In this document: one piece after another, positions 274 to 19,152 of the stretch
Numbering within the stretch: the stretch's first letter is position 1
Layout of the letters: each line of letters begins with the position of its first letter
DNA from: an uncultured archaeon
GTDB lineage: Archaea > Asgardarchaeota > Thorarchaeia > Thorarchaeales > Thorarchaeaceae
Direction: 5' to 3'
Length of the DNA stretch: 19,184 bases
Assembly (NCBI GenBank): GCA_964354495.1
Contig: CAYHAA010000018.1
Location: forward strand, 1 to 19,184
The notes under the pieces: generated by a model
What the model was told of the DNA's origin: nothing
The model's input: only the letters and a program-made list of their open reading frames with translations
Database searches by the model: none
Position numbers and translations under genes: made by a program

Positions 274-1638
274 TTGATTGCACATCAACATTATATGCAG
301 ATGGGAACAATATGCAGTCAGATGATGACGCCGCATGAAACGAATGATCGGTTACCTCTGAGTCTGTTTTACGGGAGATTGAGGATCAACACTGCAGCTG
401 AGGCAGAGCATCTTCCGCGCTTTCCCTCCGTCGTGACGATTGAGATACTGCCCTCTGCACTGAACAACATGGACACCGCACTCTTTTCAAGGTGCCAGCA
501 GCTGGCAGAGATTGTCGTCAAGGACTATACCGGAGGAGTTCTCGACCTGCGCTTTCTTGATAATCTGTCTACCTTAGAACAGCTCAAGGTGTATAGTCCC
601 TCGAAAAGTGATGATACACCAACGCGAATCACTTCGAGTGCTTGGAGGCTTCCTGCTCATCCTAGCATTACTTTCATGACCCTGAATGGAGTCCAGCCCG
701 AGGCGGACTTCATCAGACAGGTTTCGACATGGAACTTGGACCACCTGAGGTTTCATCGCGTCAATTTTGATAGCAGCAGTTGTCAGCTCCTCGGTCGCGT
801 CGCGGTGAGGCTGCTCGCATTTGATGGCTGCCGACTCCCGTTTCTCCCTGAGATCGGCGATGTTGAGGGCCTCCAGTTTTGGGATGGTTGCGTGGTGGAC
901 ACCCTTGACCTCAACAATCTGGGATTATCCGGGACAAGTCAGCTTCTCATCGACCTCAGCAAGCTCGTCCACATTGTCTGCCCATCACGACCACAGTCCC
1001 AGCTAAAGGGGCTTGTACTGCAGAATCTCTCTCCTGACCATGTACCTCTGCTGGACAGCTTCCCCAAGACGCTCAAGAAGCTTGAACTATGGCTTGGCTC
1101 CATTGGCAACGAGTATCTCACAATAATCAGGCAGATGCACTCTCTTGAGGAGTTGTTCATTACCTCTGCTGTAGCACAGCTCGACCTCTCTCTCCTCGAC
1201 GGGCATCCGAGTCTTCGAAAGCTGTTCGTAAAGATACCCAACGTCAATGCGGACCCTCATATTCCCAGACTGCCGAACATTGAGGACCTATCACTTCAGA
1301 GGGACACGAGGTCGTCGAAACTAGACCATCTTGACCTGTCCCCATTGACCAACGCTACACAGCTCACTGAACTCAAGATAAACGATTGCCCATTATCTAA
1401 GATTGACCTGGGTCCGTTGTCCTCCTGTGCTGGTCTTCAAAGGCTCGAACTCTACGGTAACCAAACTGAAGAATACGACCTCACGCCTCTTCTTCATCTC
1501 AAGTCGCTGGACTTTCTCCTTGTTGGGAATCTACTAATGCAAAATCCAGTCCTCTTTGCTGACAGCAGACAAAAAAACACGATTGTGAGCCCAGAAATGC
1601 TGCGTCTCGATATAGATGACGAGATAGAGTGGAGATAA
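274..1638 (+). CDS. Leucine-rich repeat protein
   Basis: Repeated LxxLxL and LDLSPL/IDLGPL/YDLTPL units in the C-terminal half (e.g. LDLSPLTNATQLTELKINDCPLSKIDLGPLSSCAGLQRLELYGN). True start uncertain, probably one of the ATGs at about 295-325. Confidence 0.85.
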   Translation: MIAHQHYMQMGTICSQMMTPHETNDRLPLSLFYGRLRINTAAEAEHLPRFPSVVTIEILPSALNNMDTALFSRCQQLAEIVVKDYTGGVLDLRFLDNLSTLEQLKVYSPSKSDDTPTRITSSAWRLPAHPSITFMTLNGVQPEADFIRQVSTWNLDHLRFHRVNFDSSSCQLLGRVAVRLLAFDGCRLPFLPEIGDVEGLQFWDGCVVDTLDLNNLGLSGTSQLLIDLSKLVHIVCPSRPQSQLKGLVLQNLSPDHVPLLDSFPKTLKKLELWLGSIGNEYLTIIRQMHSLEELFITSAVAQLDLSLLDGHPSLRKLFVKIPNVNADPHIPRLPNIEDLSLQRDTRSSKLDHLDLSPLTNATQLTELKINDCPLSKIDLGPLSSCAGLQRLELYGNQTEEYDLTPLLHLKSLDFLLVGNLLMQNPVLFADSRQKNTIVSPEMLRLDIDDEIEWR

Positions 1639-1813
1639 GTAGATCATTGGCAGTCAGTCTTGATGATGGAGATTAATGCCACATGAGCCTATCACAGTAT
1701 CTGTCAAAGAAGTCCCCTCAGACACATCAATACCTCATACAATCTCCATTTTAGCCGGATGTTTCATTGCGGAATAATTGCTCACTGGGATATGTTTATA
1801 TACTGTGCATCAT

Positions 1814-1866
1814 ATAGTATATGGTGAATAGTATATGACATATACTAAATGACGAATAGTATATGA
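1814..1866. promoter_or_regulatory. Probable PadR operator: repeated ATAGTATATG boxes and a perfect 9-1-9 palindrome
   Basis: ATAGTATATG at 1814, 1828 and 1856. TAGTATATG-A-CATATACTA palindrome at 1829-1847, just after a TTTATA box (~1796) and upstream of the PadR gene. Confidence 0.6.
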
Positions 1867-1940
1867 GATACAATATGCCTTGGTGACTATGGTTACCCTT
1901 GACAAGGCTCGAATACTATTCTGAGGTAAACACAGTGTCA

Positions 1941-2300
1941 ATGTCAAAAAAAACGCAGGAGGAATTGGACCGCTGGTCCAAGGAAGTCAAACGGGGTGCA
2001 GTGACTCTTGCAATCTTGGCTCTTCTGAGCAAGAGGAGAGCATACGGATACGAGGCGGTCAAAATCCTCGATGAAAAGATGTCTTTCTTAGCTCTCGAGC
2101 AAGGCACAGTCTACCCTCTGCTGAGACGACTAGAGCAGCGTGAGCTCCTCACGTCCGAGTGGGACTATGAGGACCAGGCTAAGCCCAAGAAGTACTATGC
2201 TGTTACTGACGAGGGTTCGATGGCTCTGGGAGCAATGACGCAGTCCTGGTCTGATCTCTCTAGCGAGATGCGCGACATCCTATCGGAGGTTGAAAAATAA
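1941..2300 (+). CDS. PadR-family transcriptional regulator
   Basis: ILALLSKRRAYGYE...GTVYPLLRRLE...L...KKYYAVTDEG winged-helix signature. ATG at 1941 preferred over TTG at 1899. Confidence 0.92.
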   Translation: MSKKTQEELDRWSKEVKRGAVTLAILALLSKRRAYGYEAVKILDEKMSFLALEQGTVYPLLRRLEQRELLTSEWDYEDQAKPKKYYAVTDEGSMALGAMTQSWSDLSSEMRDILSEVEK

Positions 2301-3421
2301 TGAGTAGCAATAATCCATTGGAATTAATAGAACAATATCTAGAACGAGTTAGAGTGTATCTCCCTCTAGACAGTGAAGACGCCATCGTCGAGCTTCAGAC
2401 TCATCTGATTGAAGAGGCTCAGAGAATCGGCGGAGGTACAATGACTGCTGGCTCTGCAATGATGGCCATTGAAAGAATGGGTGATCCAAAGAGCGTTGCA
2501 AATGAATATGCTGGGTCTGGGAAGAGAGTTGGTCCTGTTCCGGCTGAATATGTCAATCCTGTGACCCGAATCATTGTGGTGCTTCTTGGGGTCGGAATTG
2601 CACTCACAGTAGGTTTCTACATGCTGGGAGTGACCTTGTCTCAAGTGATTGGGACAGATATCCAGAACTGGCCACTGAGCATTCCTCTGATGATAGGCCT
2701 GAATGCAGTCATTATCATCGTCATCATCGGTGGCTTGTCCCTACTTGATCGTGACAAGCCTCTGACAGAGAAGACCACCCTTGAATCAGTATTCGGAATT
2801 GGAGTAGATGGTTTCAAGCCCAAGGGCAGATGGGATGCCGCCTGGGACCTGGTCATGGGGATATTCTGGGGAATAGTCATCATGCTTCCCGGCGTTGTCA
2901 TTCTCTACACCGACGCATTCGCCGCTGTCTATATGACTGTAGTCCTCTTTCTCTTCCTAGGTGCAATCAAAGGAGCGCTCTTCTTCCTTGGCGGTGAGAA
3001 CAACTTCAACCTGGCTGTGGAGGCATTCCTCAGTGTGGTCTGGATTGCTCTTGCAGTCGTACTGATTAACGTGGGCTGGCCTGTCAGGTATGTCTATGCC
3101 AACGGCGGTGCCGGATGGACCCTATTTGACCTCGAGGCCTTCTTCATCAGCAACGACATTCCATTTGTGCCATTCGACTGGATATGGGCGGTCATCATGT
3201 TCGTCACAGTCGTGGTTGCCATCTGGAGAGTCATTGTTTCAAGCATGAAGATCACTATGTATCTTCGTGCAGGGAAGAGGCTCTGGTGGCAAGGTAACTG
3301 GGGTGAACGCCGCAGCCTGAGAACTCCCCTATGGAAGAGGATTCTCGGAGAGCATGACCAATTCCAGAAAGAAACTTCTGTGCGTCATGATGAGCACAGA
3401 GAACCTGACGAGAATCAATAG
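2300..3421 (+). CDS. HAAS-domain (DUF1700-like) multi-pass membrane protein, partner of PadR
   Basis: N-terminal IEQYLERVRVYLP...ELQTHLIE...AIERMGDPKSVANEY motif, then about 7 hydrophobic segments. TAATG stop/start overlap with PadR. Confidence 0.85.
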   Translation: MSSNNPLELIEQYLERVRVYLPLDSEDAIVELQTHLIEEAQRIGGGTMTAGSAMMAIERMGDPKSVANEYAGSGKRVGPVPAEYVNPVTRIIVVLLGVGIALTVGFYMLGVTLSQVIGTDIQNWPLSIPLMIGLNAVIIIVIIGGLSLLDRDKPLTEKTTLESVFGIGVDGFKPKGRWDAAWDLVMGIFWGIVIMLPGVVILYTDAFAAVYMTVVLFLFLGAIKGALFFLGGENNFNLAVEAFLSVVWIALAVVLINVGWPVRYVYANGGAGWTLFDLEAFFISNDIPFVPFDWIWAVIMFVTVVVAIWRVIVSSMKITMYLRAGKRLWWQGNWGERRSLRTPLWKRILGEHDQFQKETSVRHDEHREPDENQ

Positions 3422-3432
3422 AAAGCACACTT

Positions 3433-3461
3433 GCGGGGAGATACTCCCCGCCTCTCTTTTT
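3433..3461 (+). terminator. Hairpin plus pyrimidine tract after the PadR/HAAS operon
   Basis: GCGGGGAG-ATA-CTCCCCGC (8-bp stem) followed by CTCTCTTTTT. Confidence 0.55.
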
Positions 3462-3559
3462 CTTACCTGAGCTATTCGATGATTCCAGTAGTCTGCTCAG
3501 ACACACTTACCGCACTACCTACATGTATGCAGTGACAGTGAGGTTCGGAGAAGAAGGAG

Positions 3560-3587
3560 TGGTGCTGAGGGAGTGATTTGGTCTTCA
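3560..3587 (-). repeat. 3' fragment of host tRNA-Phe (att-like left boundary of the island)
   Basis: Minus strand reads TGAAGAC-CAAAT-CACTC-CCTCAGC-ACCA. The last 21 nt match the 3' end of the tRNA at 5176-5196 at 19/21. Followed by a C/T tract; composition shifts to AT-rich right of it. Confidence 0.88.
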
Positions 3588-4027
3588 TGTTAAGAAATTT
3601 GTAAGGCTGATTTTACAGTCCCTTCATAAACCGTGTTTTCGTTTTATATCATCAGAACAGTTTCTTGGTTCGTTATTGATACTCTCAGAGACTTTCCGGA
3701 TTGAGTGGAATTAGGGGAAGTAACAGAAATTGTTTCACCTTCAATAGTTGCTGTTTGTTTAATCCATGAGTTGCAAACAACGAATTGCAGCTCAAACATT
3801 GTACCACTTTCTAAAAGTCGAACGTAAATCTCAGAGAGTATTTTCTAGAAGTTCCACTACCAATACCTCAAGCATCTCCAAGTATGAGATTCCACTGACG
3901 GGGAGCCTTTCAATGGCAAGATTGACACTTCAACAACTAGAATGTCACTTGGTTGCAGTTGCAGATATCCTTGGTATATCCTTCTCAGACCAGAGCATGT
4001 TGAGAAGATTGTTGATATAGCGCTAGA

Positions 4028-4634
4028 CTAAAGCTTGCTGGGAGTCTGATTCTCTTTTTGGAGTTGGTTAATCCTATCTTGATTTATGAGTGATGCAATT
4101 CGAAAGAGAAGATAGATGCAAGTTACAAGAAGTAGCATGCCATCGATGAAAAGCCACACAATAATAGTAGTAAAATAGAATGGCAAACATACCAATACGA
4201 GAGCATTACACTTGTTAAGAATCTTAAACATTATTGGAAGATACTAACAAGAAAAACAATGCGATATCCATTCTTTTTGAGCACAAGCTTGTGAAAAAAG
4301 ATGAAGCTTCTACTAGAACAGCTGGGTTCGTTTCAATATTTGCCAACTCAAACTTCAGGTTTTCAAGTTCTCCTTTCTCCCTTACATCTTCCTGAAGCGT
4401 CTTGCCAGATATAGGAGCATGGCAATTCACACATCTATTTTCAGTAGCTGGGATGTCCATACCACATCTCCAACACTTGTCAGGCTCAATCCTTACGGAA
4501 ACTTCAATGTATTTCCCAAGAGCTGCAAGCTCAGCAACCTTTTGCGAGTCATCACCATATTGAAGATACCACTGTTCGAAGGTTCGACTATGTCTACTAT
4601 GACCTGGCCTCTGTCTGATTGCAGGATCTGGCAA
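4028..4634 (-). pseudogene. Decayed zinc-ribbon/membrane protein gene(s)
   Basis: ORF 4224-4634 has CWRC-x10-CVNC. The overlapping 4028-4231 ORF is two hydrophobic helices. No good start codon, and stops lie just upstream in all frames checked. Confidence 0.4.
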
Positions 4635-5014
4635 CTTACCAATTTTCTTCTAGTAGGTCGATGCTGATTTTCTGAAGAGTGTTGATCATACTCTCTTGCC
4701 TAGGTGTTTACCTATCTTTGACTGTGAGAGTATCTTCTCAAGACATCTGAGGTTATTCGAGTTTCTGAAGCGGTCTGAAACAACGGTCCTCTCCCTTGAT
4801 GTTGTACGTAATAAGGTGTGAAATACTTCAACCCGATCTCAGAGATTAAAACATAGGCATAAGAAACTCTACTCTTAAGAAACCTAACACTTCCTGTTTG
4901 AAAATCGATATAATTCAACAAAACTCCCTCACTTTTAGAGATGAGTTATCTCAACAAAGAGTGGCTTTTTCCCAAAGGGATATGCCCAAATATAGGAACA
5001 GGTTCCCGTATTGT

Positions 5015-5030
5015 CCACTATATTTAAAAA
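5015..5030 (+). promoter_or_regulatory. Promoter (TATA box) of the island tRNA-Phe
   Basis: CCACTATATTTAAAAA about 30-40 nt upstream of the tRNA; a similar motif precedes the host 5' half. Confidence 0.6.
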
Positions 5031-5057
5031 TGGAATATAAGTAACGGTGAAAACATC

Positions 5058-5196
5058 GCCGAGGTAGATTAGCCCGGGAGCGATTTTCTCTTTTCGAGAA
5101 GCTCCCCGTCATCGCGCGGCTGAAGACCGCGTTGTCGTCGGGCTCATCCTGTCGACACGGGATTCGTCGAGTGTTCGAATCACTCCCTCGGCACCA
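5058..5196 (+). tRNA. trnF-GAA: tRNA-Phe(GAA) with two non-canonical introns (22/23: 5081-5110; 43/44: 5132-5163)
   Basis: Acceptor GCCGAGG/CCTCGGC plus ACCA; D-stem GATT/GATC; anticodon arm CGCGG-CTGAAGA-CCGCG; T-arm GAGTG-TTCGAAT-CACTC. Removing the 30- and 32-nt BHB-bounded hairpins gives a 77-nt cloverleaf. Confidence 0.93.
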
Positions 5197-5202
5197 CTTT
5201 CC

Positions 5203-7155
5203 TTAATCTTGAACATGAAATCCCTCTGATGCTAATTGTATCTTCGATTGTTGAACGTCATTTTCATTCTGCTTTGATAACCAATCCAGGAGTACTTTTT
5301 CTTTAGTATCGAAGTTGGGTTTAATAATTAGTGCACTTCTAATCTTAGATTCATAACCACTAACTCTTGCCTCCCATCTAATACTTATCCTGTTAGATTT
5401 TTCGAAATATGATATACGCACAGGATTTAGGTTAATGTGGATTCCTAGACTTGTAGCTATTGCTTTTTCATCATCGATTAGTCTATTCCGATAATTAGAA
5501 ACCACGATGGATAACTCGTCAGCAATATTGGATATATGATTATCACTGTGATTCTTCAAAGAATTTAAACGACCGATTGGGATGTACTGCTCAGTAACGA
5601 TGCCTTGATATTTATGCATATGATTTGAATGCATTAGAAACTCAATTGCTTCTTGAGAAATCTTTGGTTTGAATCTAAGCAGAGGTCCTTTCTTGCTGTC
5701 AAATAGTGCATGAGATCTGGACCAATTAATTACGCCATTTTTATCAACACTGCCTTCTTGTGCAAGCATTTCTTGCATGTAGCCACACCTTGCTATTGAT
5801 GACCATAATCGAAATTCGTCAGGAAGACCATAATTGATGATAGTTCGATCACCCGATGGTATCCCCCAATAGTTCAATGCATGAGTAAGAGGGCTTGCAA
5901 TATAGAATTCATAGTTTCCAATCCTTTTACGCATAGATTCATTGCTGTAGGCAACACCAAAATTATCGATTATTTTCTTGATGCGATTAATGCGGTCAAA
6001 GCTCCCCTCTGTCAATTTCAAGCTTCCAGTTATAGGAATATGGCAATCACTTACAGCTATTCCGATAATGCGGGCTTTTAATACCTCTAGACTATCACTG
6101 GATGGGAATTTTGGATTGCGAATACCGCCCTGTCCATTAGCTCCCGATATTTTAGCGAATTTCCCTTCTAATTGGTTTATGGATAGTCCTACAATATCAC
6201 ATAACAAGTGTAGTGAAACTCCAAGGACTCGATGAGTGTCTTCAGAAATATATCTTGTATCCAATCCAGTTAGTTGCTTAGATAATTTACTGAGATGGGG
6301 AATTCCTGAAATCATTGGACCTACTTCTAATTGTGATGTTGCATCCTCAACTAGCCTAGTCAAATCGTTTTCATTATTGAAGTAGAAGTATAAATCTGCA
6401 TATGCTCTAAGCAGATTATTAGACTGCGTACTAGGAGTCCAAGTATAATGTCTTCCTTCTACATTACACATTCGAATATTTTTTGATGAATCGTCTGCTC
6501 TCTCATTATCTGCTTTTTCTAAAGTCTCATTGTTGATTGAAAAAACAAGATGAGGTCTTCCTCTATCACCTAATCCAAATCTGCTAATGGACTCACTGAT
6601 GTTTGTTTCATACAAGTCTGTTTTCTCAAGGGATTCCAACTGGCTAATCAAACTATCTTTCTTCTTTCCTTTAGCCCATCTGGACACAGTAGTTCGATGG
6701 ACGCCATGAGCTTTAGCAAATTCCCTATATCCTTCTGGCGTAGGTGGCATTTTTCGATTATCTAGAGCTTCAAACAAAGAACAATAGGTTACTGCATAGG
6801 TATATCGTTTATTGAAATTGGATGTCATTATTATTTTCCAATGTTTGTTTAGAGCAGCTATTAGCTTTTCATTAGAACGGATAATCCATCCTGGATACTT
6901 CTCCAGTGTGAAGTTGTGTTTTTTTGAAATCGGATCCGAAAACTCATGTTTTAAACAAGAATTTTCTGAGTCAACAAAATTACTTTCCGATTGTCTTGTT
7001 CTATCTTTATCTTCAGGAGCAATTCGATGTATGGAATATTCACTATTGTAATCACGAAAAGCCTTGTTTCGTTCTTCAATAGTCAGATACTGTTCCTCAT
7101 TGTCTTTCTTCTCAAGGTGAGGACTCTCATCCGAGAAATCATCAATCTCTCTCAT
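5203..7155 (-). CDS. Free-standing HTH plus double-motif LAGLIDADG (DOD/intein-type) endonuclease-like protein, ~650 aa
   Basis: HTH YREFAKAHGVHRTTVSRWAKG (~6669-6729). LAGLIDADG-like helices IIGIAVSDCHI (~6040-6069) and YMQEMLAQEGSV (~5747-5785). SD AGGAGGTG 9 nt before ATG 7155. Confidence 0.68.
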   Translation of the reverse strand: MREIDDFSDESPHLEKKDNEEQYLTIEERNKAFRDYNSEYSIHRIAPEDKDRTRQSESNFVDSENSCLKHEFSDPISKKHNFTLEKYPGWIIRSNEKLIAALNKHWKIIMTSNFNKRYTYAVTYCSLFEALDNRKMPPTPEGYREFAKAHGVHRTTVSRWAKGKKKDSLISQLESLEKTDLYETNISESISRFGLGDRGRPHLVFSINNETLEKADNERADDSSKNIRMCNVEGRHYTWTPSTQSNNLLRAYADLYFYFNNENDLTRLVEDATSQLEVGPMISGIPHLSKLSKQLTGLDTRYISEDTHRVLGVSLHLLCDIVGLSINQLEGKFAKISGANGQGGIRNPKFPSSDSLEVLKARIIGIAVSDCHIPITGSLKLTEGSFDRINRIKKIIDNFGVAYSNESMRKRIGNYEFYIASPLTHALNYWGIPSGDRTIINYGLPDEFRLWSSIARCGYMQEMLAQEGSVDKNGVINWSRSHALFDSKKGPLLRFKPKISQEAIEFLMHSNHMHKYQGIVTEQYIPIGRLNSLKNHSDNHISNIADELSIVVSNYRNRLIDDEKAIATSLGIHINLNPVRISYFEKSNRISIRWEARVSGYESKIRSALIIKPNFDTKEKVLLDWLSKQNENDVQQSKIQLASEGFHVQD

Positions 7156-7367
7156 GTTATGCAGCACCTCCTTTTCATGTCTTCAATAGCATTTGCGAAC
7201 TCAACGCTTAAGACCTCAACAGAATCTCCAAGATTGCCTGTTAGATCTGGAAACTCGGAAAAGAACATCGTATTATCCTTGACAATAGTCTGAGAATCAT
7301 TGTCGAGGGGATTACAAAACGTGCTATTGTATTGGCGATCATTAGTTCTGTTATGTGAATTTTGCAT
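7152..7367 (-). CDS. Small hypothetical ORF overlapping the start of the nuclease-like gene
   Basis: Short open frame whose 3' end contains the SD of the next gene; no recognisable motif. Confidence 0.25.
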   Translation of the reverse strand: MQNSHNRTNDRQYNSTFCNPLDNDSQTIVKDNTMFFSEFPDLTGNLGDSVEVLSVEFANAIEDMKRRCCIT

Positions 7368-7711
7368 AATGAATACCTCATTTCTATTCTATTTGGAAAA
7401 TACAGTGTTTAAGTGAAAAGTAGTAAGTTGTATGAGATACTCTTCTATGGGCTCAGGAGGCTATATCTCCCTCAAGTCGTTCCAGACTGTGTGGAAAAGT
7501 GACCATATGTTTCGCGCGGATTGCCAGAAAATGACCGATTGGATGATTAACAGTCGTTGAAATAGCCGTTCTTTTCCATGAATTTCGATGCTTTAGCCAA
7601 TTGGAGCACTCATTATTCTATTTACTAGCCAGAGATTCCCATGAGATAGTTAGAAAATTACCATTAATGACGAGTATAATAACCGACCTACAGACATAGT
7701 AATGAAATAGG

Positions 7712-9448
7712 ATGACATCTGACCTGCTAGATAGTGAGGCCCAAAAGGAGTATGTTCAAAATATCATTCTCAACAGAGGGCGCAAAGTTGACCTGTACCA
7801 ATATCTCAGAAAACATCCCGAAGAACTACTCAAGGGGGTTCTTGTTGCAGGATCAATAGGGTCTGGGAAGACACACCGTTCAATCAGTGTCATCCGTTCA
7901 GCTCTCGATTCGGGATATGGAGTATTGGTGTTCGACCCTTCCAATGATTATCAGAGATTATTGCACAGTTATGAGGCAGGTGTTGTCATTGATTTTAGTG
8001 AGTATTATCTGAACCCACTGGAGCCGTCACCAGGATTATCGCTCAAAGATTGGTCTTCAATCTTCATTCAGGTCTTTGCTCAAAACTTTGGACTGAAGGA
8101 TCCTTGAATAGCAATCCTTCAGGCATCGTTAAACAACCTAATAGTTAAGTCATATGACAACTATCCTACTCTTAGAGAGCTTCTTGAGGAGGTAATGCAA
8201 TACCTACCAATGTCACACTCATCAGAAACAAGTAGTCATGCTAGCGTACAGAACCGCTTAAAGAGTGTACTAGAATCTGAATGGGGGAGATGCCTTGATG
8301 TTCATCAGGGATATTCCCCTGTCGACTTTGAAGAAGGTCTCCTTGTAATCAAAATAAGGCCTGTAGGTATCGAACGGATACATGAGCTTGTTGTAGGTCT
8401 TACCGTTGCTGGAATATTCGCTTATAGGTCATGGAAACAGAATCGTGGCGAAGCACTGAGTAAGGATATCCTTATCGTCATTGAAGAAGCTCATAGATTT
8501 CTAAGCGAAGGACGGCAAGGTGACAGATATGGACAGATACTCTATCTTGAACGAGCACTTGTCGAATCTAGAAAGATCGGTGTAGGTTTTGTGATAATAG
8601 ACCAGATGCCAAACAGAATCAGCGACTATGTTCTTGGTAGCTGCAGTATGTGGATAGTATGCAAGCTTATAGTTCCAAATGCACGAAGATTGGCCGGTGA
8701 GGCGCTTAGGACGGATGTTGTCTAGAGTCATATTGGTCTTATGGAATTGCCAATTGGTGCAGCAATAATCAAAGTAGATAATCAACGCGAATTGGAAGAA
8801 ACAAGTCCAATGGTTCATGGAAACGAAAAACACCTCTACGATGTCAGAGGGTTGCCAGCCACTGTTGCCTTACCATCAAGCCCAGAAGAGTTACTTCCTT
8901 CAATGGAAAGCAGAGAAGTATGGGAGAAGATGGTACAGAATGAACGATACATGAGATATTTTGAACGTGTCATTATGCAAGACTATGAGCGAGTTGAGAA
9001 ATCACTTCGAGAAGATGAGAAAACAATGATTCGAAGATTCATATCTTGTACTCTGAAGAAAAATCACAGAGATGCAATTCTGGACACTGAAATGCAATCT
9101 GAGATTTCAAGGCTCATGGACAGATATCAAGGTGATGAGTTAAAGCAGCTTATTGGAATTCTGTCATCAAGTCTCAATATTGCAATACTAAATGAGGTAT
9201 TCACTTCTGATAAGGCAGACAGAGCTTCTCTTTCTAAATCTGCTTCCCGTTCATTAAGTTGGATTAGTCGAACACTAAAAATTATGCTTGAAGCAAAAAT
9301 CATCCAAGAGCAATCAGACCTATTTTTCATCACTGATAAGGGTAGAAGATTACTCCATTGGGGTGAGTTGGTAAGTAAAGAAAGTAGAAGCTTAGACATT
9401 TCCTCACTAGTGATTGAAACCGATACTAAGCAACTGACTGTATCCTGA
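7712..9448 (+). pseudogene. HerA/FtsK/VirB4-like (DUF87) ATPase with C-terminal winged helix, interrupted by two in-frame stops
   Basis: Walker A VAGSIGSGKT, VLVFDPSNDY, Walker B IVIEEAHRFL and ESRKIGVGFVIIDQMP motif. The three track ORFs share one frame, joined across TGA 8105-8107 and TAG 8723-8725. C-terminal wHTH SLSWISRTLKIMLEAKII...FFITDKG. Confidence 0.85.
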
Positions 9449-9453
9449 AGACG

Positions 9454-9957
9454 ATGTCAAAATATAGAATATCCCGTGAAAAGGAAACTATAGCTGGATG
9501 GAGAGGTTCTCAGGAAGATCTAGATGAGATCATTCGTACCGAATATCTTCTGCGATATTTTATGGAATAGAAAACTAAGGATTTTGAACCTTTACACCAA
9601 TTAGATATCAAACCATTTCGCGCATTGAAGATAGCTCTGGAAAGTGGGATTTTATCTTCATTACTGACCAATGATCATTTCATTTTCCTTGAACATCTAA
9701 TCAAGTTATCAAACCTTGGAGAGCGAAGTAATATACGACAACTTAGGCTATTGGAGCATCATAGAATAGTGAAAGGATTTTGGAATGAAGGCAGAAAGAG
9801 TGTGCGACTAAATCAGACCTGGAAACTAATGTTGGCTCATCTTGTTTCCAGTATCATGTTTAAATCAATTGTTCCTGTAGATTTACTTCACAAAGCTCAT
9901 CGGTTAGCAAAGGATTATTCAATCCGTGAACAATTGCAGATGTTTCACAGATCTTAA
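9454..9957 (+). pseudogene. Small winged-helix-like protein with one in-frame TAG (9568-9570)
   Basis: ATG 9454, 5 nt after the ATPase stop, is in frame with track ORF 9625-9957. LIKLSNLGERSNIRQLRLLEHHRIVKG...RKSVRL resembles an ArsR/MarR-type wHTH. Confidence 0.6.
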
Positions 9958-9961
9958 TGCA
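9850..9961 (+). repeat. 112-bp direct repeat, copy 1 (3' end of the wHTH gene)
   Basis: 101/112 identical to 13611-13722, with no indels. Confidence 0.95.
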
Positions 9962-10561
9962 CCTTTTGCGCTCTTCCTTACAGCACATTATTACTTCTTC
10001 TCAAAAAGATATGCACGAATATCTCCATCATCTATTAGTGGAAACCAACAGACTACTGCTACAGACAATAACTCCATGCCTACATATCCCTATGTTAATT
10101 GTGTGGACAGTATGCCAAGGATACGCCCCACAGACCTGTCATCGGTGCTGGGAGCGAAGAAGGAGAGTAGAGAATTAGACTTCCTCCATCGAGCGAGAGG
10201 GTGATGAGTACTTCCAGTGCTTCAAGCATGAGATGTACTTCCACGTCGATATCATCACAGCACGAAACATCACTCATGCTCATGGCTCGATTCTACCGTT
10301 CCCGGAAGGACAATGGAAGTATATTCAAGTCTGTCCAACTTATAGTGAACAATAGAATGCTGTTGATTTGTTTCTGTAGAAGCTGAGGGTGGGGACAAAA
10401 AGAGAGTACCATGAGCGCTGTCTGAAACTCAGAAACAACACTGAGCAGTCTTCAGCTCTTCAAATATGAGCAACTCAAGAGTTGTTCTTCTGATCTCAAT
10501 CATGAGATAGTGAAGCTTTATTAGAAATAATGAATAACGCTCAATCGAGGGATTTCGGCCG

Positions 10562-12919
10562 ATGGGGATGTATTCATCCTATACGTGCAATTCAAAGTTG
10601 AAGATATTGCTTTTTTGGTTGACTGTAAGTGTTCTTATGTTTGTACCGAATGCTGCTCATGCAGAACCTGTTGATACTTTGCAGGACACAGTTGGACCAA
10701 GAGCATGTATACGATACTTTGAAAACTTCACGCTCTGTATTGGGGTAGAGATTCTAAATACATGGTCTAACTCTATTGAAATAACTGAGAATCTTACTCT
10801 TCCTAGGAGTTATCAGGACAGATTTGATGACAACTCAACTGAAACAGAGAATCCATATTTCATTCAGGGAGTCAAAGGAATTGTTGGTAATTGTTCATAC
10901 ATTCCAGGGAGTCAATCAAGAGTGTCAGTATTCCGTTTCTCAATCAATGGCTCTTTTGCAGAGAGTGAGTACTACAATCTTGAGCTGAAATGGGGATTGA
11001 CACCCGCTACTGAAGATACTCTCCAACCAATGCCCAGGTATACACAGAGGTTCAATGTCACACCTTTTGATTGGATTGATCAGGATACAATGTTGCCAAA
11101 AGCAATAGAATGTGAAGGAGGAGAGATAGATTCCACTTACGACCTGAGAATCACCTCGATAGTTCTTCCTGACTCATCAATATGCAAGGGAGATTCTGTT
11201 CTCGTCTATGTCACTGTTCATAACTATGGTTCTTGCAGTCTGAAGGCGTTTTTGAATGCAAGAATCAAGGAGGACAGCGGACTCTATATTGGCTTTGATC
11301 AGGGAGTATGGTCATATTATGGGAACGGAGTGGACATGATCTTTTATGTCTCTCCAGGATATACATATACCTATTATTTTGCATTTGGACCTGTCCTCTA
11401 TGATGACAATAGAGGTATCTGGGCTCTAAATGGGAGAATCGATGCAAGCAGTTATCAGACGGTCTCTCTCTGGTATAAGGTGTACCAGATGAGACTTCGA
11501 GGTTATGCTTCGGGATTTCAAACAACTTTTGACTACTACTGCAGTGAAAGCTTCTATGTCATTCAGAACACTGGGACTCGACGGATATTGGCTGCAGTTG
11601 TTGACGACGAATCTTGTTGGACAAACCCTGCTATGTTCTATGAATCGGTAGTTGATTTTGAAATTCGCATTGGTGAGGGTTGGACCCTTGGTCCGTACAC
11701 AACATTCGAACAAGAATTCGATGTTGATATTCAATTCTTTGATGTTGGTTCGTATGACTGGCTTGATGGTGCCTTAGGACAAGCAAGTGCAGCTGAAGCG
11801 CTTCGAAATTCTGAATATGCACTTGGACAAGGACTGAAACTTGGAGGCAATTGGGTTTCTATATTCGTTATCAATCCTGATACTGAAGACTACAGTTATT
11901 GTTACACTCAACGTGAGAATCATGGATTTGACATTGGTGTCGGACTCCTGCCAGCTGGATATTATTTGCACAGCGGTGAGGGAAACTCTGTTTTCTTAGG
12001 ATCCTCCTGTGTTACAATGGGTGCATATCTACCCGATTATTTCAGGGTCATGGAGTGTGCTCTACATGAACTGTGTCATCTGTTTGGCGCTCTACATGGA
12101 GATCAGTACGGACCGGATTCATTCGGTCCAGATAAAGATGGATATACATATGTAATGGCTGGAGGAACCGGTCGGGATTTATCTCCATGGGTAGGATGGA
12201 GGATGCATACCCTGACAGCACAGAAGATCAATGAGAACAATCATCTGAGGAAGTTTGATGGAGCTCCTGCCCCGGAGTATACGTCTGGAAAGTGGTATGG
12301 ACAGATTGAGTGTCATGTGGTGATGAATGCTAATCATTATGGTGAACCAGTGTACAGACTGGACTCTGATGGATTGTATCATTGGGGTTATAACAGTCAG
12401 AACTACAAACGGTTCTCAGTGACAGATAGTTTCGTATCTGGAATAGAACAGAGTGGGCGGGTTCTAAGCTCAAAGGAGATAGATGCAGAGGTTTCGTATC
12501 CTAATCCGGGGATGGGTTGCTTCTATGCTGCCTACAAGCTCTACTGGAGTTCCAGTCATTGGCCAACTGGATTCTCTCCCAGTCAAGGCATCAAACTGTA
12601 TGTTGTATACTGGTCATGGCAAGATAGTGATACTACATCCTCATCTGTTGATAATGTCATAATGGTAATAATATCATCCAGATCCTCTACTCCATCTCAG
12701 TACTACTCAGCATCCTTTGAGGCTGCTTCTCCAACAGGTGGTTGGAAATACTGTCACAATCAATGGGTTATTCAGGATGACATGAAAGACATCAACCTCA
12801 CAGATTCCACAGTCTATCTTCTACTAGGTTTCCGTGATGCTTGGTCTGCAGACTATCATCAGAAACTTAAGGTGCATCCAATCTGGATTCTATTCGCATA
12901 TACATGGAACAGTTGGTGA
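10562..12919 (+). CDS. Secreted multidomain zinc metalloprotease (metzincin) with a CARDB/Ig-like domain
   Basis: Signal peptide ILLFWLTVSVLMFVPNAAHA; CARDB-like DLRITSIVLP...VYVTVHNYG; HELCHLFGALH (HExxHxxGxxH) followed by a Met-turn-like YVMA. Confidence 0.8.
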   Translation: MGMYSSYTCNSKLKILLFWLTVSVLMFVPNAAHAEPVDTLQDTVGPRACIRYFENFTLCIGVEILNTWSNSIEITENLTLPRSYQDRFDDNSTETENPYFIQGVKGIVGNCSYIPGSQSRVSVFRFSINGSFAESEYYNLELKWGLTPATEDTLQPMPRYTQRFNVTPFDWIDQDTMLPKAIECEGGEIDSTYDLRITSIVLPDSSICKGDSVLVYVTVHNYGSCSLKAFLNARIKEDSGLYIGFDQGVWSYYGNGVDMIFYVSPGYTYTYYFAFGPVLYDDNRGIWALNGRIDASSYQTVSLWYKVYQMRLRGYASGFQTTFDYYCSESFYVIQNTGTRRILAAVVDDESCWTNPAMFYESVVDFEIRIGEGWTLGPYTTFEQEFDVDIQFFDVGSYDWLDGALGQASAAEALRNSEYALGQGLKLGGNWVSIFVINPDTEDYSYCYTQRENHGFDIGVGLLPAGYYLHSGEGNSVFLGSSCVTMGAYLPDYFRVMECALHELCHLFGALHGDQYGPDSFGPDKDGYTYVMAGGTGRDLSPWVGWRMHTLTAQKINENNHLRKFDGAPAPEYTSGKWYGQIECHVVMNANHYGEPVYRLDSDGLYHWGYNSQNYKRFSVTDSFVSGIEQSGRVLSSKEIDAEVSYPNPGMGCFYAAYKLYWSSSHWPTGFSPSQGIKLYVVYWSWQDSDTTSSSVDNVIMVIISSRSSTPSQYYSASFEAASPTGGWKYCHNQWVIQDDMKDINLTDSTVYLLLGFRDAWSADYHQKLKVHPIWILFAYTWNSW

Positions 12920-13494
12920 GGAGAGTGATGAAGGCAATGCAGAGATATTTCACTTTTGTTGTGGTTGTTGCAACAATATGCTCTCTTCTATACATATCAC
13001 CAGTATCTGGACATGGTCATCATTTCGACTTGGGCTATCTCCAGTCAAACTTTCAGGATGACACCATCTTTGGTAACTATACCTATACGTACCCTAATTA
13101 TTACCCGTGGCCTGTGTTAGTCTATATTGATGTGCAAGATTCAGATGGGGTGGATTCCGTATGGTTGAGTTATCAACGCGAGAATGAGACCTTAGTATTG
13201 AATCAGTCTATGAGTAGAACTGTTCTTGGTAGCGGTAACAGATATGTTGGTGACTTTAGGGCTAATGTCAGTCAGACTGTAACCAAGTTCATAGTCCACT
13301 TCCATGCCAATGATACTCTTGGTCATCAGACGTCATCGATTGAATACTCGCTGATTGTTTACTATAACCCTCCTGATACACTTCCGAACGAAGACTACGG
13401 TCTACAGTTTATAATAGGGCTGTCAATTGCATTAGTGAGTGTAGTGGGACTCTTCTATTCTTGGAGAAAAGGTCGAGGTAGATCAGATGAGTAG
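12904..13494 (+). CDS. Surface protein with signal peptide, Ig-like domain and C-terminal TM anchor
   Basis: N-terminal hydrophobic segment, beta-rich middle with N-x-T/S sequons, C-terminal FIIGLSIALVSVVGLFYSW plus basic tail RKGRGR. Overlaps the protease gene by 16 nt. Confidence 0.78.
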   Translation: MEQLVRRVMKAMQRYFTFVVVVATICSLLYISPVSGHGHHFDLGYLQSNFQDDTIFGNYTYTYPNYYPWPVLVYIDVQDSDGVDSVWLSYQRENETLVLNQSMSRTVLGSGNRYVGDFRANVSQTVTKFIVHFHANDTLGHQTSSIEYSLIVYYNPPDTLPNEDYGLQFIIGLSIALVSVVGLFYSWRKGRGRSDE

Positions 13495-13610
13495 CTAATC
13501 AGATGTCATGTGTCGGATATGACTGATCATCTCTAGTTTTTCTCACCCCATCTCTCTACTAATCTGTTGGGAATGATGATTGAGGGGATCTAATATAGAA
13601 GAGAACCCCT

Positions 13611-13722
13611 AGTACCAGATTTGAATCAATTATTCCTGTAGATTTACTTCACAAAGCTCATCGTTTAGCAAAGGATTATTCAATCCGTGAACAATTACAA
13701 ATGTTTTGCAGACCTTAATGCA
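13611..13722 (+). repeat. 112-bp direct repeat, copy 2 (orphan 3' fragment of a wHTH paralog)
   Basis: Same frame ends at the same TAA (IPVDLLHKAHRLAKDYSIREQLQMFCRP*). No homology upstream of 13611. Confidence 0.95.
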
Positions 13723-13813
13723 ACCATACAGCGGTATGTAATTGTGTTCAAACTCTATTGAAAATTTGGAATACAAAATAAAAAGCATCTGTAGGATAAT
13801 TCATAGAACGAAA

Positions 13814-13845
13814 TCTTCAGATCTCCCAGGCTAATCTACCTCAGC
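13814..13845 (-). repeat. 5' fragment of host tRNA-Phe lacking the 22/23 intron (att-like right boundary of the island)
   Basis: Minus strand reads GCTGAGG-TA-GATT-AGCCTGGGA-GATC-TGAAGA. This is 24/26 identical to the spliced 5' end of the 5058 tRNA, followed directly by the anticodon-loop core. Confidence 0.9.
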
Positions 13846-13878
13846 AATGCCTGTATTTTGTCTTCCGCTGATTTTGTG

Positions 13879-13893
13879 ATATAAAGATAGTGG
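13879..13893 (-). promoter_or_regulatory. Promoter of the disrupted host tRNA-Phe
   Basis: CCACTATCTTTATAT 35-48 nt upstream of the 5' half, resembling CCACTATATTTAAAA before the island tRNA. Confidence 0.55.
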
Positions 13894-13903
13894 CAATGTG
13901 CGA

Positions 13904-14377
13904 CTATGCCAGTTTCTTCACGGCCATCTCGACCTCTTCAAATGGAGGAAGTTTCCCAGGGTCATCACTGACCCAGCAGTACACGACGGTTCTGTCCACA
14001 TCCACCACAAAGACCGACCGTTTTGCGACTTTGGTCATGCCTGCAAGGTCCTTGTGTACTATTCCATAGCTCTTGATTGTGGTCTTCTCCCAATCAGAGA
14101 GCAATGGAAACTGGATACCGTTGCTCTTCTTGAACGCAGCATGACTAAATATCCCATCGACGGAGATTCCCAAGACATTTGCGCCAAGCTCATTATAGCT
14201 CGTCAGAACATCCCTGAATTGACAGAGCTCCTTCTGGCATACCGAGCTGAAGTCTGCAGGGTAGAAGACAAGCACCACTGGACCTTTCTTGAGTTCTTCG
14301 CTCAGCGTCACACTCTTGCCAGGTGCCTCCCAGAGGGTGAAGTCTGGGGCTTCACTTCCAACAGTCAGTTTCGTCAA
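13904..14377 (-). CDS. Peroxiredoxin (AhpC/TSA family, BCP/AhpE-like)
   Basis: VGSEAPDFTL...VVLVFYPADFSSVCQKELC...GISVD...LLSDW...RSVFVVD; PxxxS/TxxC active site with CxxxxC. Confidence 0.93.
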   Translation of the reverse strand: MTKLTVGSEAPDFTLWEAPGKSVTLSEELKKGPVVLVFYPADFSSVCQKELCQFRDVLTSYNELGANVLGISVDGIFSHAAFKKSNGIQFPLLSDWEKTTIKSYGIVHKDLAGMTKVAKRSVFVVDVDRTVVYCWVSDDPGKLPPFEEVEMAVKKLA

Positions 14378-14460
14378 TCCACCAACCTCACTATAGTTAA
14401 TGTTTTTCCTTCATTGTCTATTAAGGCTTAGGATACGTGTTCAGTATGCACTAGAACGTT

Positions 14461-14979
14461 CTACTTGATCTTGTAGTTCATATAGCTGGCAACAATTGCT
14501 GCTGCAATCGCGGCTGCATTCACTGCAAGGGGGTATATGTACACTGTATCAAGGAAAGCTGCAGTTGCAAGCCATGATGGAAGACTGCCCAGATCTGCAA
14601 CGCCAAAGGGGATGAAATAGAACAGCAGGAACAGACAGGTCAGCAGGCCGACCCCAACGAACGCTGGCATATCCGACCAGGAACGCGCGAATGCTGAGAG
14701 CTTGCCAATCCACGAGAACTGTGCTCTCTGACGTCGTCGTTGCTTTCTCTTGGATACGATATGTGCCCAGCGGTACATTGTCTCTGCCATGAGAACATAT
14801 CCTCCTCCGAGAACAGCCATTGCTCCTAACGAGACCATGAGCTGCAACTCAGCACTTAGAACATTCACATAGACTTGAGCATGCCATAGAATCGGAATCT
14901 GCACGAAACCAGCTATCGCTAGAAACATGATTATGAGTCCGGGCTTACTGCCACGTCTCCACCAGACCGCTAGGCTCAT
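14461..14979 (-). CDS. Hypothetical membrane protein (~4 TM)
   Basis: Four hydrophobic segments with an Arg/Lys-rich cytoplasmic loop; normal ATG and stop. Confidence 0.75.
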   Translation of the reverse strand: MSLAVWWRRGSKPGLIIMFLAIAGFVQIPILWHAQVYVNVLSAELQLMVSLGAMAVLGGGYVLMAETMYRWAHIVSKRKQRRRQRAQFSWIGKLSAFARSWSDMPAFVGVGLLTCLFLLFYFIPFGVADLGSLPSWLATAAFLDTVYIYPLAVNAAAIAAAIVASYMNYKIK

Positions 14980-15054
14980 CGCTTCTCACCAAGTGTGTGA
15001 ATGCCAGAGCGGACATCGGTCTGCACTTTAAGGTTTTGGAACAAGTGAATTCTG

Positions 15055-15669
15055 CTATGCCTTATGCGCATGAACCTTGAACCACCAATCGTTGTCCTCG
15101 GTATGGAGGTCATCAAAGCCCACCCTCTTCAGTAGTGAACGCACGCTATCTGTCGTCTGTCCCTGATTTCCTCGAACTCCGTATCCGACCTTTGAAACAG
15201 TTCCATCGGGCAGGATGAGCAGAGCATTGAATATGAAGTGTTCCTCCCTGCAGTCAATACGGCTTGCGTAGATGGACAGGTCGCCTCCTCTCTTGAGAGC
15301 TCTAAACGACTGCGCCAAGATGCGCTCCTTGGTAGTCCAGCCGGTCATATATCCTAGAGAGAACCATAGGGTGATCATGTCAAAAGAACAGTCCCGAAAG
15401 GGCAGACTTCCAGCATCTGCGACGAACCAGTTCGCGGGCGGATCATGTATCTTGGCCTCAAGAATCTCACTCATCCTGTAGTCCACCGCACAGACATGTT
15501 TTCCACCGATTCGGGATACCAATCCCTCACCGCCGCCGCCTATGTCAAGAATGAGTCTGTCTTTCGGTAAGTCCTCTAAATGAATTATCTGGACAGGTGA
15601 TGATGAGCTGCTAAGACTATCTTTCATTGAAGATGACAATTTTTGAGTCTGACACTCGCTCATTAACAT
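15055..15669 (-). CDS. Class I SAM-dependent methyltransferase
   Basis: LILDIGGGGEG motif I, AVD, VADAGSLPFRDCSFDMI motifs. Start uncertain (15669, 15663 or 15627). Confidence 0.88.
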   Translation of the reverse strand: MLMSECQTQKLSSSMKDSLSSSSSPVQIIHLEDLPKDRLILDIGGGGEGLVSRIGGKHVCAVDYRMSEILEAKIHDPPANWFVADAGSLPFRDCSFDMITLWFSLGYMTGWTTKERILAQSFRALKRGGDLSIYASRIDCREEHFIFNALLILPDGTVSKVGYGVRGNQGQTTDSVRSLLKRVGFDDLHTEDNDWWFKVHAHKA

Positions 15670-15671
15670 AA

Positions 15672-15977
15672 TGCATTCCCAGTCCACGAATTTGCGATTA
15701 TTCACAATCTGATGAAAAGACCACTGAATACGGGTTTCTGGATGTGGATGGGCCCGATGTCCATTGGGACGTGAGAGAACTCTCTGTGGGAGGAGAATAC
15801 CTCATACGCGTTGTCGCCAGAAGTTCAACAGGCATTGTTGCAGAGGATGTGTCCGATTCAGTCTTTTCGGTTGCCAGCAGGGACTATTCAACTATCATAC
15901 TGACGGGTGTTGGCAGTGCGATTATCTTGGTAGCAGTGATTCTAATCTATGTACGCCTCAGAAGAGGAACGGCGTGA
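15672..15977 (+). pseudogene. C-terminal remnant of a large surface protein (Ig-like repeat plus TM anchor)
   Basis: HWDVRELSVGGEYLIRVVARSSTGIVAEDVSDSVFSV, then a TM helix and RLRR tail. The frame opens after TAA 15669-15671 with no convincing start. Confidence 0.6.
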
Positions 15978-16144
15978 CAAGAGAGAATAGCAGAGTATGA
16001 GCGCTATTCAGCAAGTAATCTCTGGATGAACAGTGTATCCTCTGAGAAAAGACAAGTGAGGGTTCAACAGGCTCAATCAACACGCCATAATTCTTTTAAC
16101 CATTTCAACCGGCATTACAACCCGCACGAAACGTGCAGAACTGT

Positions 16145-16284
16145 GGGCCGGTAGATTAGCCCGGTAGTCACTGCGAATTGTCGCAGTGGCCAGGAGAGAT
16201 CGCTTCCTTGGCATGGAAGAGGTCGCGAAACTCTGTGAATCTAGTTTTCACGGAGCGCGAGTTCAAATTTCGCCCGGTCCACCA
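16145..16284 (+). tRNA. trnA-GGC: tRNA-Ala(GGC) with two non-canonical introns (D-arm ~16167/8-16195/8; 53/54: 16230-16261)
   Basis: Acceptor GGGCCGG/CCGGTCC with the G3:U70 Ala identity pair plus ACCA; anticodon arm CTTCC-TTGGCAT-GGAAG. Textbook BHB (CGCG/CGCG helix, 9-bp inner stem) for the T-arm intron. Confidence 0.93.
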
Positions 16285-16363
16285 CACTCTTTTTCCACGA
16301 AGAGGAAGACTTACGCTAATGGACATCATATTAAGGTGGCAGGCAAATCGAAAAGCGAGCAGA

Positions 16364-17047: not shown

Positions 17048-17129
17048 CTGACTACAGTAGCTCTTTTGCATATTCATCAGACAAGCACGCACAATGGATG
17101 TATTATTCTAAAACGATTTCACATTTCAT

Positions 17130-19116: not shown

Positions 19117-19152
19117 ATATTGTTCAAATGAAGAATCGCTGGTGGACTCGAC

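Follow-up and report, generated by a model that had tools for sequence, protein, structure and literature searches.

What becomes of an archaeal genome when foreign DNA breaks its gene for phenylalanine tRNA (tRNA-Phe), and by what mechanism does such DNA enter and stay? The question is raised by a locus of an uncultured archaeon (Asgardarchaeota; Thorarchaeia; Thorarchaeales; Thorarchaeaceae), which lies in a stretch of 19,184 nucleotides (nt), positions 1 to 19,184 of the forward strand of contig CAYHAA010000018.1 in assembly GCA_964354495.1, referred to here as the window. The host genome, labelled G000 in comparisons, is a metagenome-assembled genome of 51 contigs and 3.30 Mb, with a completeness of 97.7% and a contamination of 3.8%. 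Within the window, the resident tRNA-Phe gene of this Thorarchaeota genome is interrupted by a foreign island of 10.2 kb with low GC. The island contains a complete tRNA-Phe gene of its own, next to which stands a gene for a predicted LAGLIDADG homing-endonuclease-like protein.

Stubs of the resident tRNA-Phe gene

All three tRNA-Phe pieces proposed by the first-pass annotation, two flanking the island and one internal, were found where it had placed them (Table 1). The 5′ stub is identical in 26 of 26 positions to the resident allele of two close relatives (contigs L116 and L117) and is unique in the window. The 3′ stub (AAATCAC...CCA) runs from the end of the T loop through the 3′ arms of the T stem and acceptor stem to A73 and CCA, followed by a C/T tract; it carries A70, and together with its trailer it is 93% identical to the tRNA-Phe 3′ end and trailer in L116, L117, G006 and G017. 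The acceptor arms of the two stubs, GCTGAGG and CCTCAGC, are complementary and give a T3-A70 pair. Shuffled sequences give an expectation of 0 chance matches for both the 26-mer 5′ piece and the 3′ motif. A pattern search for the 5′ part also matched positions 16150-16167 as a tRNA D-arm-like sequence.

On its island side each stub is followed by TGAAGA, a 6-bp repeat with the sequence of the anticodon loop, and the adjoining arms of the anticodon stem are absent on both sides. The longer left-hand copy, TGAAGACC, matches the anticodon loop of the resident allele and that of the island tRNA alike. In comparison with the L116/L117 allele, positions 26-32 are missing between the D arm and the right-hand TGAAGA, and positions 41-57 between TGAAGACC and the end of the T loop. 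The stubs thereby lack 31 nt in total, among them the two arms of the anticodon stem and the T stem's 5′ arm, and when joined (54 nt) they are not called as a tRNA by the tRNA finder. Because these positions are gone, the flanking pieces are stubs and not halves of the resident gene; the earlier description of a split tRNA-Phe at the borders was right in its coordinates and in the T3-A70 pairing, but not in treating the pieces as halves. The target tRNA is not rebuilt at either junction and, with 31 nt lost, excision cannot restore the resident gene.

The form of the gene before its destruction is indicated by the relatives. In the genus, a methyltransferase gene, a gene for 172 amino acids (aa), the peroxiredoxin gene and tRNA-Phe follow one another and converge on the HAAS and PadR genes (more than 20 genomes), with tRNA-Phe on the same strand as peroxiredoxin and about 60 nt downstream of it (20 or more genomes). 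The nearest lineages were reached through the 90% protein cluster of the HAAS protein (HAAS at least 90% identical in aa). L116 and L117, the contigs of which are 88-91.5% identical to the flanks of the window, have an empty site with the same promoter, an intact, intron-less tRNA-Phe of 77 nt with U3-A70 and the same C/T trailer, and a third contig of the nearest lineages has only 287 nt between HAAS and peroxiredoxin. An empty site with an intact target occurs in L116, L117 and contig P0155, apart from the genus-wide synteny, and the relatives have one tRNA-Phe each. The promoter region of 53 nt upstream of the 5′ stub is also conserved in L117, G002, G006 and G017. Since the empty sites of L116 and L117 hold an intact U3-A70 gene behind the same promoter, the stubs are relics of the resident allele, and U3-A70 was its working form. 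One further contig with a close HAAS gene, L118, has a different downstream context and gives no information on the empty site.

The island is foreign DNA, as judged from three features. The flanks have a GC content of 0.48-0.51, but the stretch from 3600 to 13800 only 0.36-0.43, with a step at both borders; a remnant of a tyrosine-integrase gene in the island is 80-86% identical in nt across genera; and a pair of genes for proteins of 785 and 196 aa recurs in two other genera with 55-57% and 33-37% aa identity. The checks proposed by the first-pass annotation thus came out in its favour: the composition changes inside the island, and relatives have a tRNA-Phe at this place (20 or more genomes of the genus), which in L116 and L117 is intact and of the flank allele. 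These results support its reading that the resident gene was destroyed, not rebuilt, and replaced by a foreign copy with its own promoter, which is diverged.

Similar traces are seen elsewhere in the genus. G007, G009 and G010 keep a 5′ stub of their resident tRNA-Phe, cut in the variable region at about position 45-47 (L037, G007:C38, 5040-6470; L045, G009:C145, 5700-6089; L112, G010:C168). Downstream of the stub, at a distance of 0.1-1.2 kb and in direct orientation, G007 and G009 have a further, complete tRNA-Phe behind a different promoter; in G010 such a complete second copy was not found. The anticodon loop of the G009 stub is mutated (CTAAAGA). Because these three genomes also hold 5′ stubs, replacement at the tRNA-Phe locus is recurrent in the genus. 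The spacer between tRNA-Phe and HAAS differs as well, being 139 nt here (3422-3559) versus 0.3-2.7 kb in relatives (compared with L032, 9580-11620), where it holds up to three small genes, one of them Staygreen-like; either this spacer is itself variable, or it was deleted in the window.

Table 1. Coordinates of the features of the tRNA-Phe locus, in window positions unless a contig is named (ORF, open reading frame; BHB, bulge-helix-bulge; HTH, helix-turn-helix)
Feature	Position	Strand	Remark
3′ stub of resident tRNA-Phe with native C/T-rich trailer	3548..3579	-	stub 3579..3560, tRNA positions 57/58-76
TGAAGACC, left-hand repeat copy with two more anticodon-stem bases	3580..3587	-	tRNA positions 33-40
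84-aa ORF	3766..4020	+	no Pfam or PHROGs match; short homologues in G050, G011, G024
Tyrosine-integrase pseudogene	4305..4888	-	residues 122-316 of intact relative; C-terminal two thirds
Putative promoter of island tRNA	5015..5057	+	CCACTAT-ATTTAAAAA box about 30 nt upstream
Island tRNA-Phe(GAA), C3-G70	5058..5196	+	CCA encoded; opposite orientation to stubs
Exons of island tRNA-Phe	5058-5080, 5111-5136, 5169-5196	+	
Introns of island tRNA-Phe	5081-5110 (D arm, 22/23), 5137-5168 (variable region)	+	BHB-type
Predicted free-standing LAGLIDADG homing-endonuclease-like gene, 654 aa, N-terminal HTH region	5203..7167	-	intact ORF
Broken HerA/DUF87 ATPase and winged-helix gene	7712..9448	+	ORFs 7712-8107, 8195-8725, 8741-9448
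Left copy of 112-nt direct repeat	9850..9961	+	3′ end of 110-aa ORF 9625-9957
Nested two-gene cassette (785-aa and 196-aa proteins)	genes 10562..13494	+	9962-13610 between repeats
Right copy of 112-nt direct repeat	13611..13722	+	91 nt from right end of island
TGAAGA, right-hand copy of 6-bp direct repeat	13814..13819	-	anticodon-loop positions 33-38
5′ stub of resident tRNA-Phe	13820..13845	-	tRNA positions 1-25, T3; acceptor 5′ arm and whole D arm
Resident tRNA-Phe promoter region	13846..13898	-	53 nt identical upstream of intact L116 tRNA-Phe
Peroxiredoxin stop	13904	-	upstream of resident tRNA-Phe promoter region
Paralogue-linked tRNA in G000	contig C3:34293-34513	+	paralogue from 34540 onward on - strand

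The island tRNA-Phe and the endonuclease-like gene beside it

The whole window is free of tRNA calls by Rfam and by ARAGORN with default settings. If ARAGORN is allowed introns, it picks up 5058-5196 under the wrong tRNA type, and once both introns are removed it calls a tRNA-Phe(gaa) of 77 nt. The unspliced precursor is predicted to keep the acceptor, anticodon and T arms in its fold (z-score -3.7), and the second intron is homologous to an intron of many relatives. After splicing, the island tRNA would be identical to the resident allele at 73 of 77 positions, the differences lying at positions 3, 18 and 70 and at one position of the variable loop. The sequence upstream, which we take as the promoter of the island tRNA, shares a CCACTAT-TTTA-A core with the resident tRNA-Phe promoters of the genus and differs in the remainder. 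Since four of the 77 positions differ and the promoter shares only the core box, the island tRNA is a xenologue and not a recent duplicate of the resident gene; the earlier view that flanks and internal gene represent different alleles, T3-A70 and C3-G70, holds.

A second tRNA-Phe was not found in the G000 assembly by a similarity search, a scan for a GAA anticodon stem-loop, or a scan for a T arm paired with an acceptor. The island gene is therefore the only tRNA-Phe found in this assembly, in agreement with the count expected by the first-pass annotation. Its further claim, that the island is essential and a form of addiction, is carried as far as the gene count goes: because the sole working copy found is borne by the island, the cell would depend on the insert. 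G000 also illustrates how easily such genes escape annotation. Rfam finds 26 tRNA genes and ARAGORN with introns 31; multiple non-canonical introns hide the tRNAs for Phe, Ile, Val, Thr, Pro, Asn, Tyr and Trp. In a standard annotation several tRNAs, tRNA-Phe included, would therefore be listed as absent, about one third of the tRNAs of the genome being missed.

The endonuclease-like gene lies tail to tail with the island tRNA, its stop being 6 bp from the CCA end. The 654-aa protein has no match in Pfam and no sequence match in the PDB. An AlphaFold (AF2) model built from 27 homologues has a predicted local distance difference test (pLDDT) score of 77 overall and above 90 over residues 300-650, and contains two alpha-beta-beta-alpha-beta-beta-alpha domains, the arrangement of the LAGLIDADG fold. 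The 50 best Foldseek matches in the PDB are all LAGLIDADG enzymes, among them PI-PfuI, I-Tsp061I, I-DmoI and PI-SceI, with template modelling (TM) scores by target of 0.60-0.66 for the first three. Among the 27 homologues D370 (..IAVSDC..) is invariant and E467-G468 (..LAQEGN..) is at least 90% conserved, and a motif alignment made by eye places D370 and E467 at the two motif-end catalytic positions. The modelled protein can be classed as LAGLIDADG homing-endonuclease-like. It resembles I-DmoI and I-Tsp061I, single-chain LAGLIDADG enzymes of archaeal rRNA BHB introns, in the fold of its C-terminal 350 residues and in motifs ending in D and E, but it has no detectable sequence similarity to them and carries an HTH-rich N-terminal extension of 300 residues; its gene, moreover, is free-standing beside a tRNA gene, whereas theirs lie inside introns.

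Among 28 genomes of the genus, orthologues stand beside tRNA-Phe only in G000, G011 and G024, a patchy distribution, and empty and filled alleles both occur among the nearest lineages. In the other Thorarchaeota contigs the orthologues always converge on tRNA-Phe at the same locus in its native orientation, and some kilobases beyond them there is a displaced 3′ tRNA piece that starts in the T loop. An endonuclease gene abutting the CCA end of a multi-intron tRNA, in a cassette that supplies a substitute for part of the tRNA while the old part stays behind, is likewise seen at L036, L047 and L051. All six other endonuclease-linked tRNA-Phe genes that were examined carry an intron in the T loop. 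Two such modules lie on different contigs of G024 (L036, G024:C206, 6148-9043; L051, G024:C303), one of them with two displaced 3′ tRNA pieces in tandem, 600 nt apart; this doubling could reflect two strains in the bin, which has 7% contamination, or repeated insertion.

The association extends to other tRNAs. Paralogues with 30-42% identity converge on the 3′ ends of other tRNAs with two to four introns: one such pair lies on contig C3 of G000, where no stubs of this second endonuclease-linked tRNA were found, and there are at least six more cases among 20 paralogues in the genus (L088, L091, L093, L094, L098 and L100). By a rough estimate, adjacency of a paralogue to a tRNA is expected by chance at less than one in a thousand per gene. 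What emerges looks like a tRNA-linked endonuclease family across the genus. G000 itself holds five paralogous matches to the 654-aa protein, some of them partial at contig ends.

Proposed arrival and spread of the island

The arrangement is also found in metagenomes. Contigs from two sequencing runs (Logan assemblies, assembled separately), possibly the source samples, are 100% identical to the window over 2600-9901 and 4123-8011; because of this identity, the left junction and the inverted tRNA are not products of binning. Soil and sediment contigs from two other studies were used for the junctions and for divergence. A soil contig of 3347 nt covers 10549-13895 at 98.5% identity and passes through the right junction into the resident promoter, with no indel listed. 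Another contig, of 2130 nt, joins 2660-3578 on the HAAS side (12.7% diverged) to 4798-5839 in the tRNA/endonuclease part (4.5% diverged); between 3578 and 4798 it has 145 nt of different sequence where the window has 1219. A second lineage thus has the 3′ stub next to the inverted tRNA and the endonuclease gene. Of the integrase remnant no more than the first ~30 codons are left there, and for this reason the remnant is ancestral to the island.

Divergence is unevenly spread along these contigs. It amounts to 8-12% in the flanking host genes, 4.5-7% in the part with tRNA, endonuclease and ATPase, and 1-1.7% in the nested cassette (1-7% for the island overall), so that the island looks more recently shared than its surroundings. 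Between G000 and G024, HAAS and the endonuclease gene are 76% and 79% identical in nt; since the two diverge to a similar degree there, the contrast between island and flanks is not simply a difference in rate.

The coupling of the LAGLIDADG-like gene to the replacement tRNA, of which the first-pass annotation made no use, changes the likely mechanism. In our best explanation, to which we would give an even chance of being correct, an integrase brought the island in, and the endonuclease then spread and enforced a tRNA shielded by introns. The first entry would have been made at the anticodon loop by the tyrosine integrase whose pseudogene lies at the left end, with TGAAGA as the 6-bp crossover core; the anticodon loop is reportedly a classical crossover site (sublocation) for tyrosine integrases. 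An integrase event is the most likely original entry because the repeat has the anticodon-loop sequence of the interrupted gene and a dead integrase lies at the left end. The element would have brought a complete tRNA-Phe instead of rebuilding the target with a repair fragment. The endonuclease would recognise the uninterrupted sequence of the tRNA-Phe gene, and the island copy would be immune, as its introns at 22/23 and in the variable region split the recognised sequence, while the stubs would have lost 26-32 and 41-57 through cutting and misrepair. The introns of the island tRNA and the losses from the stubs fall in the same two regions, a pattern expected if the endonuclease recognises the uninterrupted gene and every copy in a genome with the nuclease must lose that sequence. 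Cutting would furthermore copy the island into empty alleles, with stubs and flanks serving as homology, which would explain both the junction shared by two lineages and an island younger than its flanks. With the resident gene beyond repair by excision, the cell could no longer lose the island tRNA.

Several observations weigh against this explanation. The 25-bp exon 2, with the anticodon stem-loop, differs from the resident allele at one variable-loop base, so that a recognition site lying wholly inside this exon would be unshielded. The island tRNA is without the T-loop intron of the other endonuclease-linked tRNA-Phe genes and has the 22/23 and variable-region introns instead. The island-side neighbours of TGAAGA do not resemble anticodon-stem arms, and that both stem arms are lost beside the repeat is accounted for only in hindsight. 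Searches for an attP form, an empty relic or another copy of the island ends were unsuccessful: scanning genome and metagenome collections for exact matches to the attP junction, to the empty relic of 54 nt and to the two stub junctions gave seven chance matches, none of them related to tRNA, and none of 86 genomes of the family has the right end (13723-13819) at another place. In G050 and G058, elements with this integrase are not at tRNA-Phe, the intact tRNA-Phe being on another contig. The divergence values come from short metagenome contigs whose letters were not read, and the flank and island contigs may partly represent different strains. As to the gene count, a second tRNA-Phe could sit in the unassembled 2.3% of the genome.

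Could the integrase alone account for the locus? A tRNA-Phe-carrying element of plasmid or virus type would then have integrated once at TGAAGA and decayed, its integrase and ATPase genes breaking and small deletions arising at both att sites, with the endonuclease as a mere passenger. The integrase pseudogene next to the left end, the 6-bp direct repeat at the anticodon loop, the low GC and a HerA-type ATPase with a winged-helix domain, typical of archaeal plasmids, all agree with such a course, and in Caldiarchaeum, too, an element that integrated has left a tRNA fragment behind (PMC3293823). Left unexplained are the coincidence of both deletions with the intron positions of the island tRNA, the lower divergence of an island with a dead integrase and the recurrence of its junction in a second lineage, and the general tie of the endonuclease family to tRNA genes; elements with the same integrase in other genera, besides, do not sit at tRNA-Phe. 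We regard the integrase alone as a possible but unlikely account. Less probable still is an old, vertically inherited rearrangement, in which a tRNA-endonuclease module neighboured the resident locus and was scrambled by insertions, partial duplication and inversion, so that nothing would be mobile now and dependence would be an accident of which copy decayed. The endonuclease gene of relatives does adjoin the native tRNA-Phe in native orientation, the 5′ stubs in G007, G009 and G010 mark the locus as a hotspot of rearrangement, and several island genes are pseudogenes. Against such a history stand the clean empty site in the nearest lineages, the lower divergence of the island, the want of inverted repeats at its borders to mediate an inversion, and the contrast of U3-A70 in the stubs with C3-G70 and a non-homologous promoter flank in the island tRNA, which is hence no recent duplicate. 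Models with a single inversion from a G024-like ancestor were rejected, because they cannot yield a complete inverted tRNA together with both stubs and a different promoter.

Two simpler readings have very little probability. A chimeric contig, joined at tRNA-like repeats during assembly or binning, might be suspected in a metagenome-assembled genome of 51 contigs with some contamination; but the points at which the contig departs from the native locus and returns to it are complementary within a single gene, separately assembled contigs are identical over the two intervals given above, contigs from other studies bridge both junctions, and no long exact word is common to the stubs and the island tRNA, all of which makes an artefact highly improbable. 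A functional split tRNA gene of the Nanoarchaeum/Caldivirga type, its pieces joined in trans, would fit the promoter kept by the 5′ piece and the complementary acceptor arms, yet the missing stems refute it: 31 nt are lacking and the joined sequence is not called as a tRNA. In contrast to genuine split tRNA genes, the pieces here do not make up a complete tRNA and the sequences adjoining them are not complementary, and no obvious promoter box was seen by eye, with no scan run, upstream of the 3′ piece. We assign the split-gene reading next to no probability.

The most far-reaching reading goes one step further. The tRNA-endonuclease pair could be a gene drive that enforces itself on an essential gene present in a single copy: the nuclease would destroy the uninterrupted resident gene, survival would require the tRNA-Phe of the drive itself, and the introns would be its immunity device. 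We put this forward tentatively, as less likely than not. Where the non-canonical introns of archaeal tRNA genes, their fragments and their split forms come from is an old question, and the main idea has been that the introns protect tRNA genes from integrating elements. A gene drive would amount to addiction free of toxin and would open a direct route along which, in Asgard and other archaea, non-canonical tRNA introns, tRNA fragments and perhaps split tRNA genes could spread. Should the nuclease cut the intact allele and not the intron-bearing one, tRNA introns would confer immunity to a homing endonuclease, a mobile element would have become indispensable by replacing an essential single-copy tRNA gene, and a mechanism for intron spread would become testable at the bench. 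The locus offers all the states for this, namely an intact intron-less allele, a two-stub allele, a two-intron replacement and an attached candidate nuclease; its data are public, and the island occurs in at least two diverged backgrounds.

How does the locus compare with known systems? At the tRNA-Thr(GGU) locus of Caldiarchaeum subterraneum, integration of an element left a 5′ fragment of the tRNA, and an intron was gained at 24/25 (Sugahara et al. 2012, PMC3293823). There, as here, a fragment of the resident tRNA adjoins an insertion with a recombinase gene, the working copy gained a D-arm intron (24/25 there, 22/23 here), and close strains differ at the locus. In Caldiarchaeum, however, the junction restores the target, the rebuilt tRNA forming a direct repeat with the 5′ fragment, whereas here both ends are stubs that lack 31 nt, the complete tRNA is inverted with its own promoter, and an endonuclease gene is attached. 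Elements of the SSV1 and pNOB8 types share with the island an insertion in a tRNA gene, a short border repeat, an integrase near one end, deviant composition and an empty site, but their attP normally supplies the 3′ (or 5′) part of the tRNA, so that integration leaves a whole gene; here the repeat is limited to 6 bp, the gene is destroyed, and the integrase is a pseudogene not split at the junction.

A different kind of likeness is offered by collaborative or intron-less homing in phages, as with F-CphI beside the intron-containing psbA of cyanophage S-PM2 (PMC6083498) and mobE of T4 (PMC2790892). In both settings the nuclease gene lies outside but flush against its presumed target, which has an ORF-less intron that possibly interrupts the site, and nuclease, intron and flanking DNA would move together. 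The phage cases concern protein-coding genes, group I introns and HNH or Endo VII nucleases; ours concerns an archaeal tRNA gene, BHB introns and a nuclease of LAGLIDADG type whose cleavage is predicted. A replacement gene with about 8 kb of cargo would move here, and the resident allele is killed, not converted. What is new at this locus is that a whole tRNA gene is replaced, that the copy is inverted and that both old ends remain.

Other contents of the island

The island is a decayed mosaic and not an intact element. Like a tRNA-targeting integrative island it encodes a tyrosine integrase near one end, but the integrase is a pseudogene. In a tblastn comparison with the integrase of G015:C120 (PF00589, E 7.7e-12) the pseudogene shows 77% identity, one frameshift and two in-frame stops, and the N-terminal 121-176 residues are absent from the whole genome. 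Intact copies of this integrase are 87% identical in protein across genera, which is why we assign it to a mobile element. The family often lies at contig ends, as expected of a multi-copy mobile element (L077, 12352-13350; G050:C52, 19574-20540), and a stretch of 40 nt just upstream of the start codon is conserved. No tRNA-Phe fragment was found on the integrase contigs of G050, G058, G015, G024 and G020. An SSV-type split integrase was considered and rejected, as no ORF spans the reconstructed circular junction. A Zn-ribbon ORF (4224-4634) was likewise rejected as a homologue of the native Zn-ribbon gene found upstream of tRNA-Phe in some relatives (E 0.04); it is part of the integrase pseudogene.

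Besides TGAAGA, the island ends carry no terminal inverted or long direct repeats, and in comparison with the ends of the endonuclease islands in G024 and L047 no homology was found beyond the tRNA part. The fragments of the broken ATPase gene match Pfam DUF87 and HTH_45, and an intact paralogue of 807 aa with the same domain order is encoded on contig C15. The proteins of the nested cassette have no Pfam match; for the 785-aa protein PHROGs gives none either, and Atlas offers only weak leads to a metalloprotease or CARDB-like function, scoring 0.79 at best. The two copies of the 112-nt repeat that enclose the cassette are 90% identical, and this 3.65-kb unit is probably separately mobile. A motif of ~60 nt at 13550-13610, near its right-hand end, recurs in other genomes.

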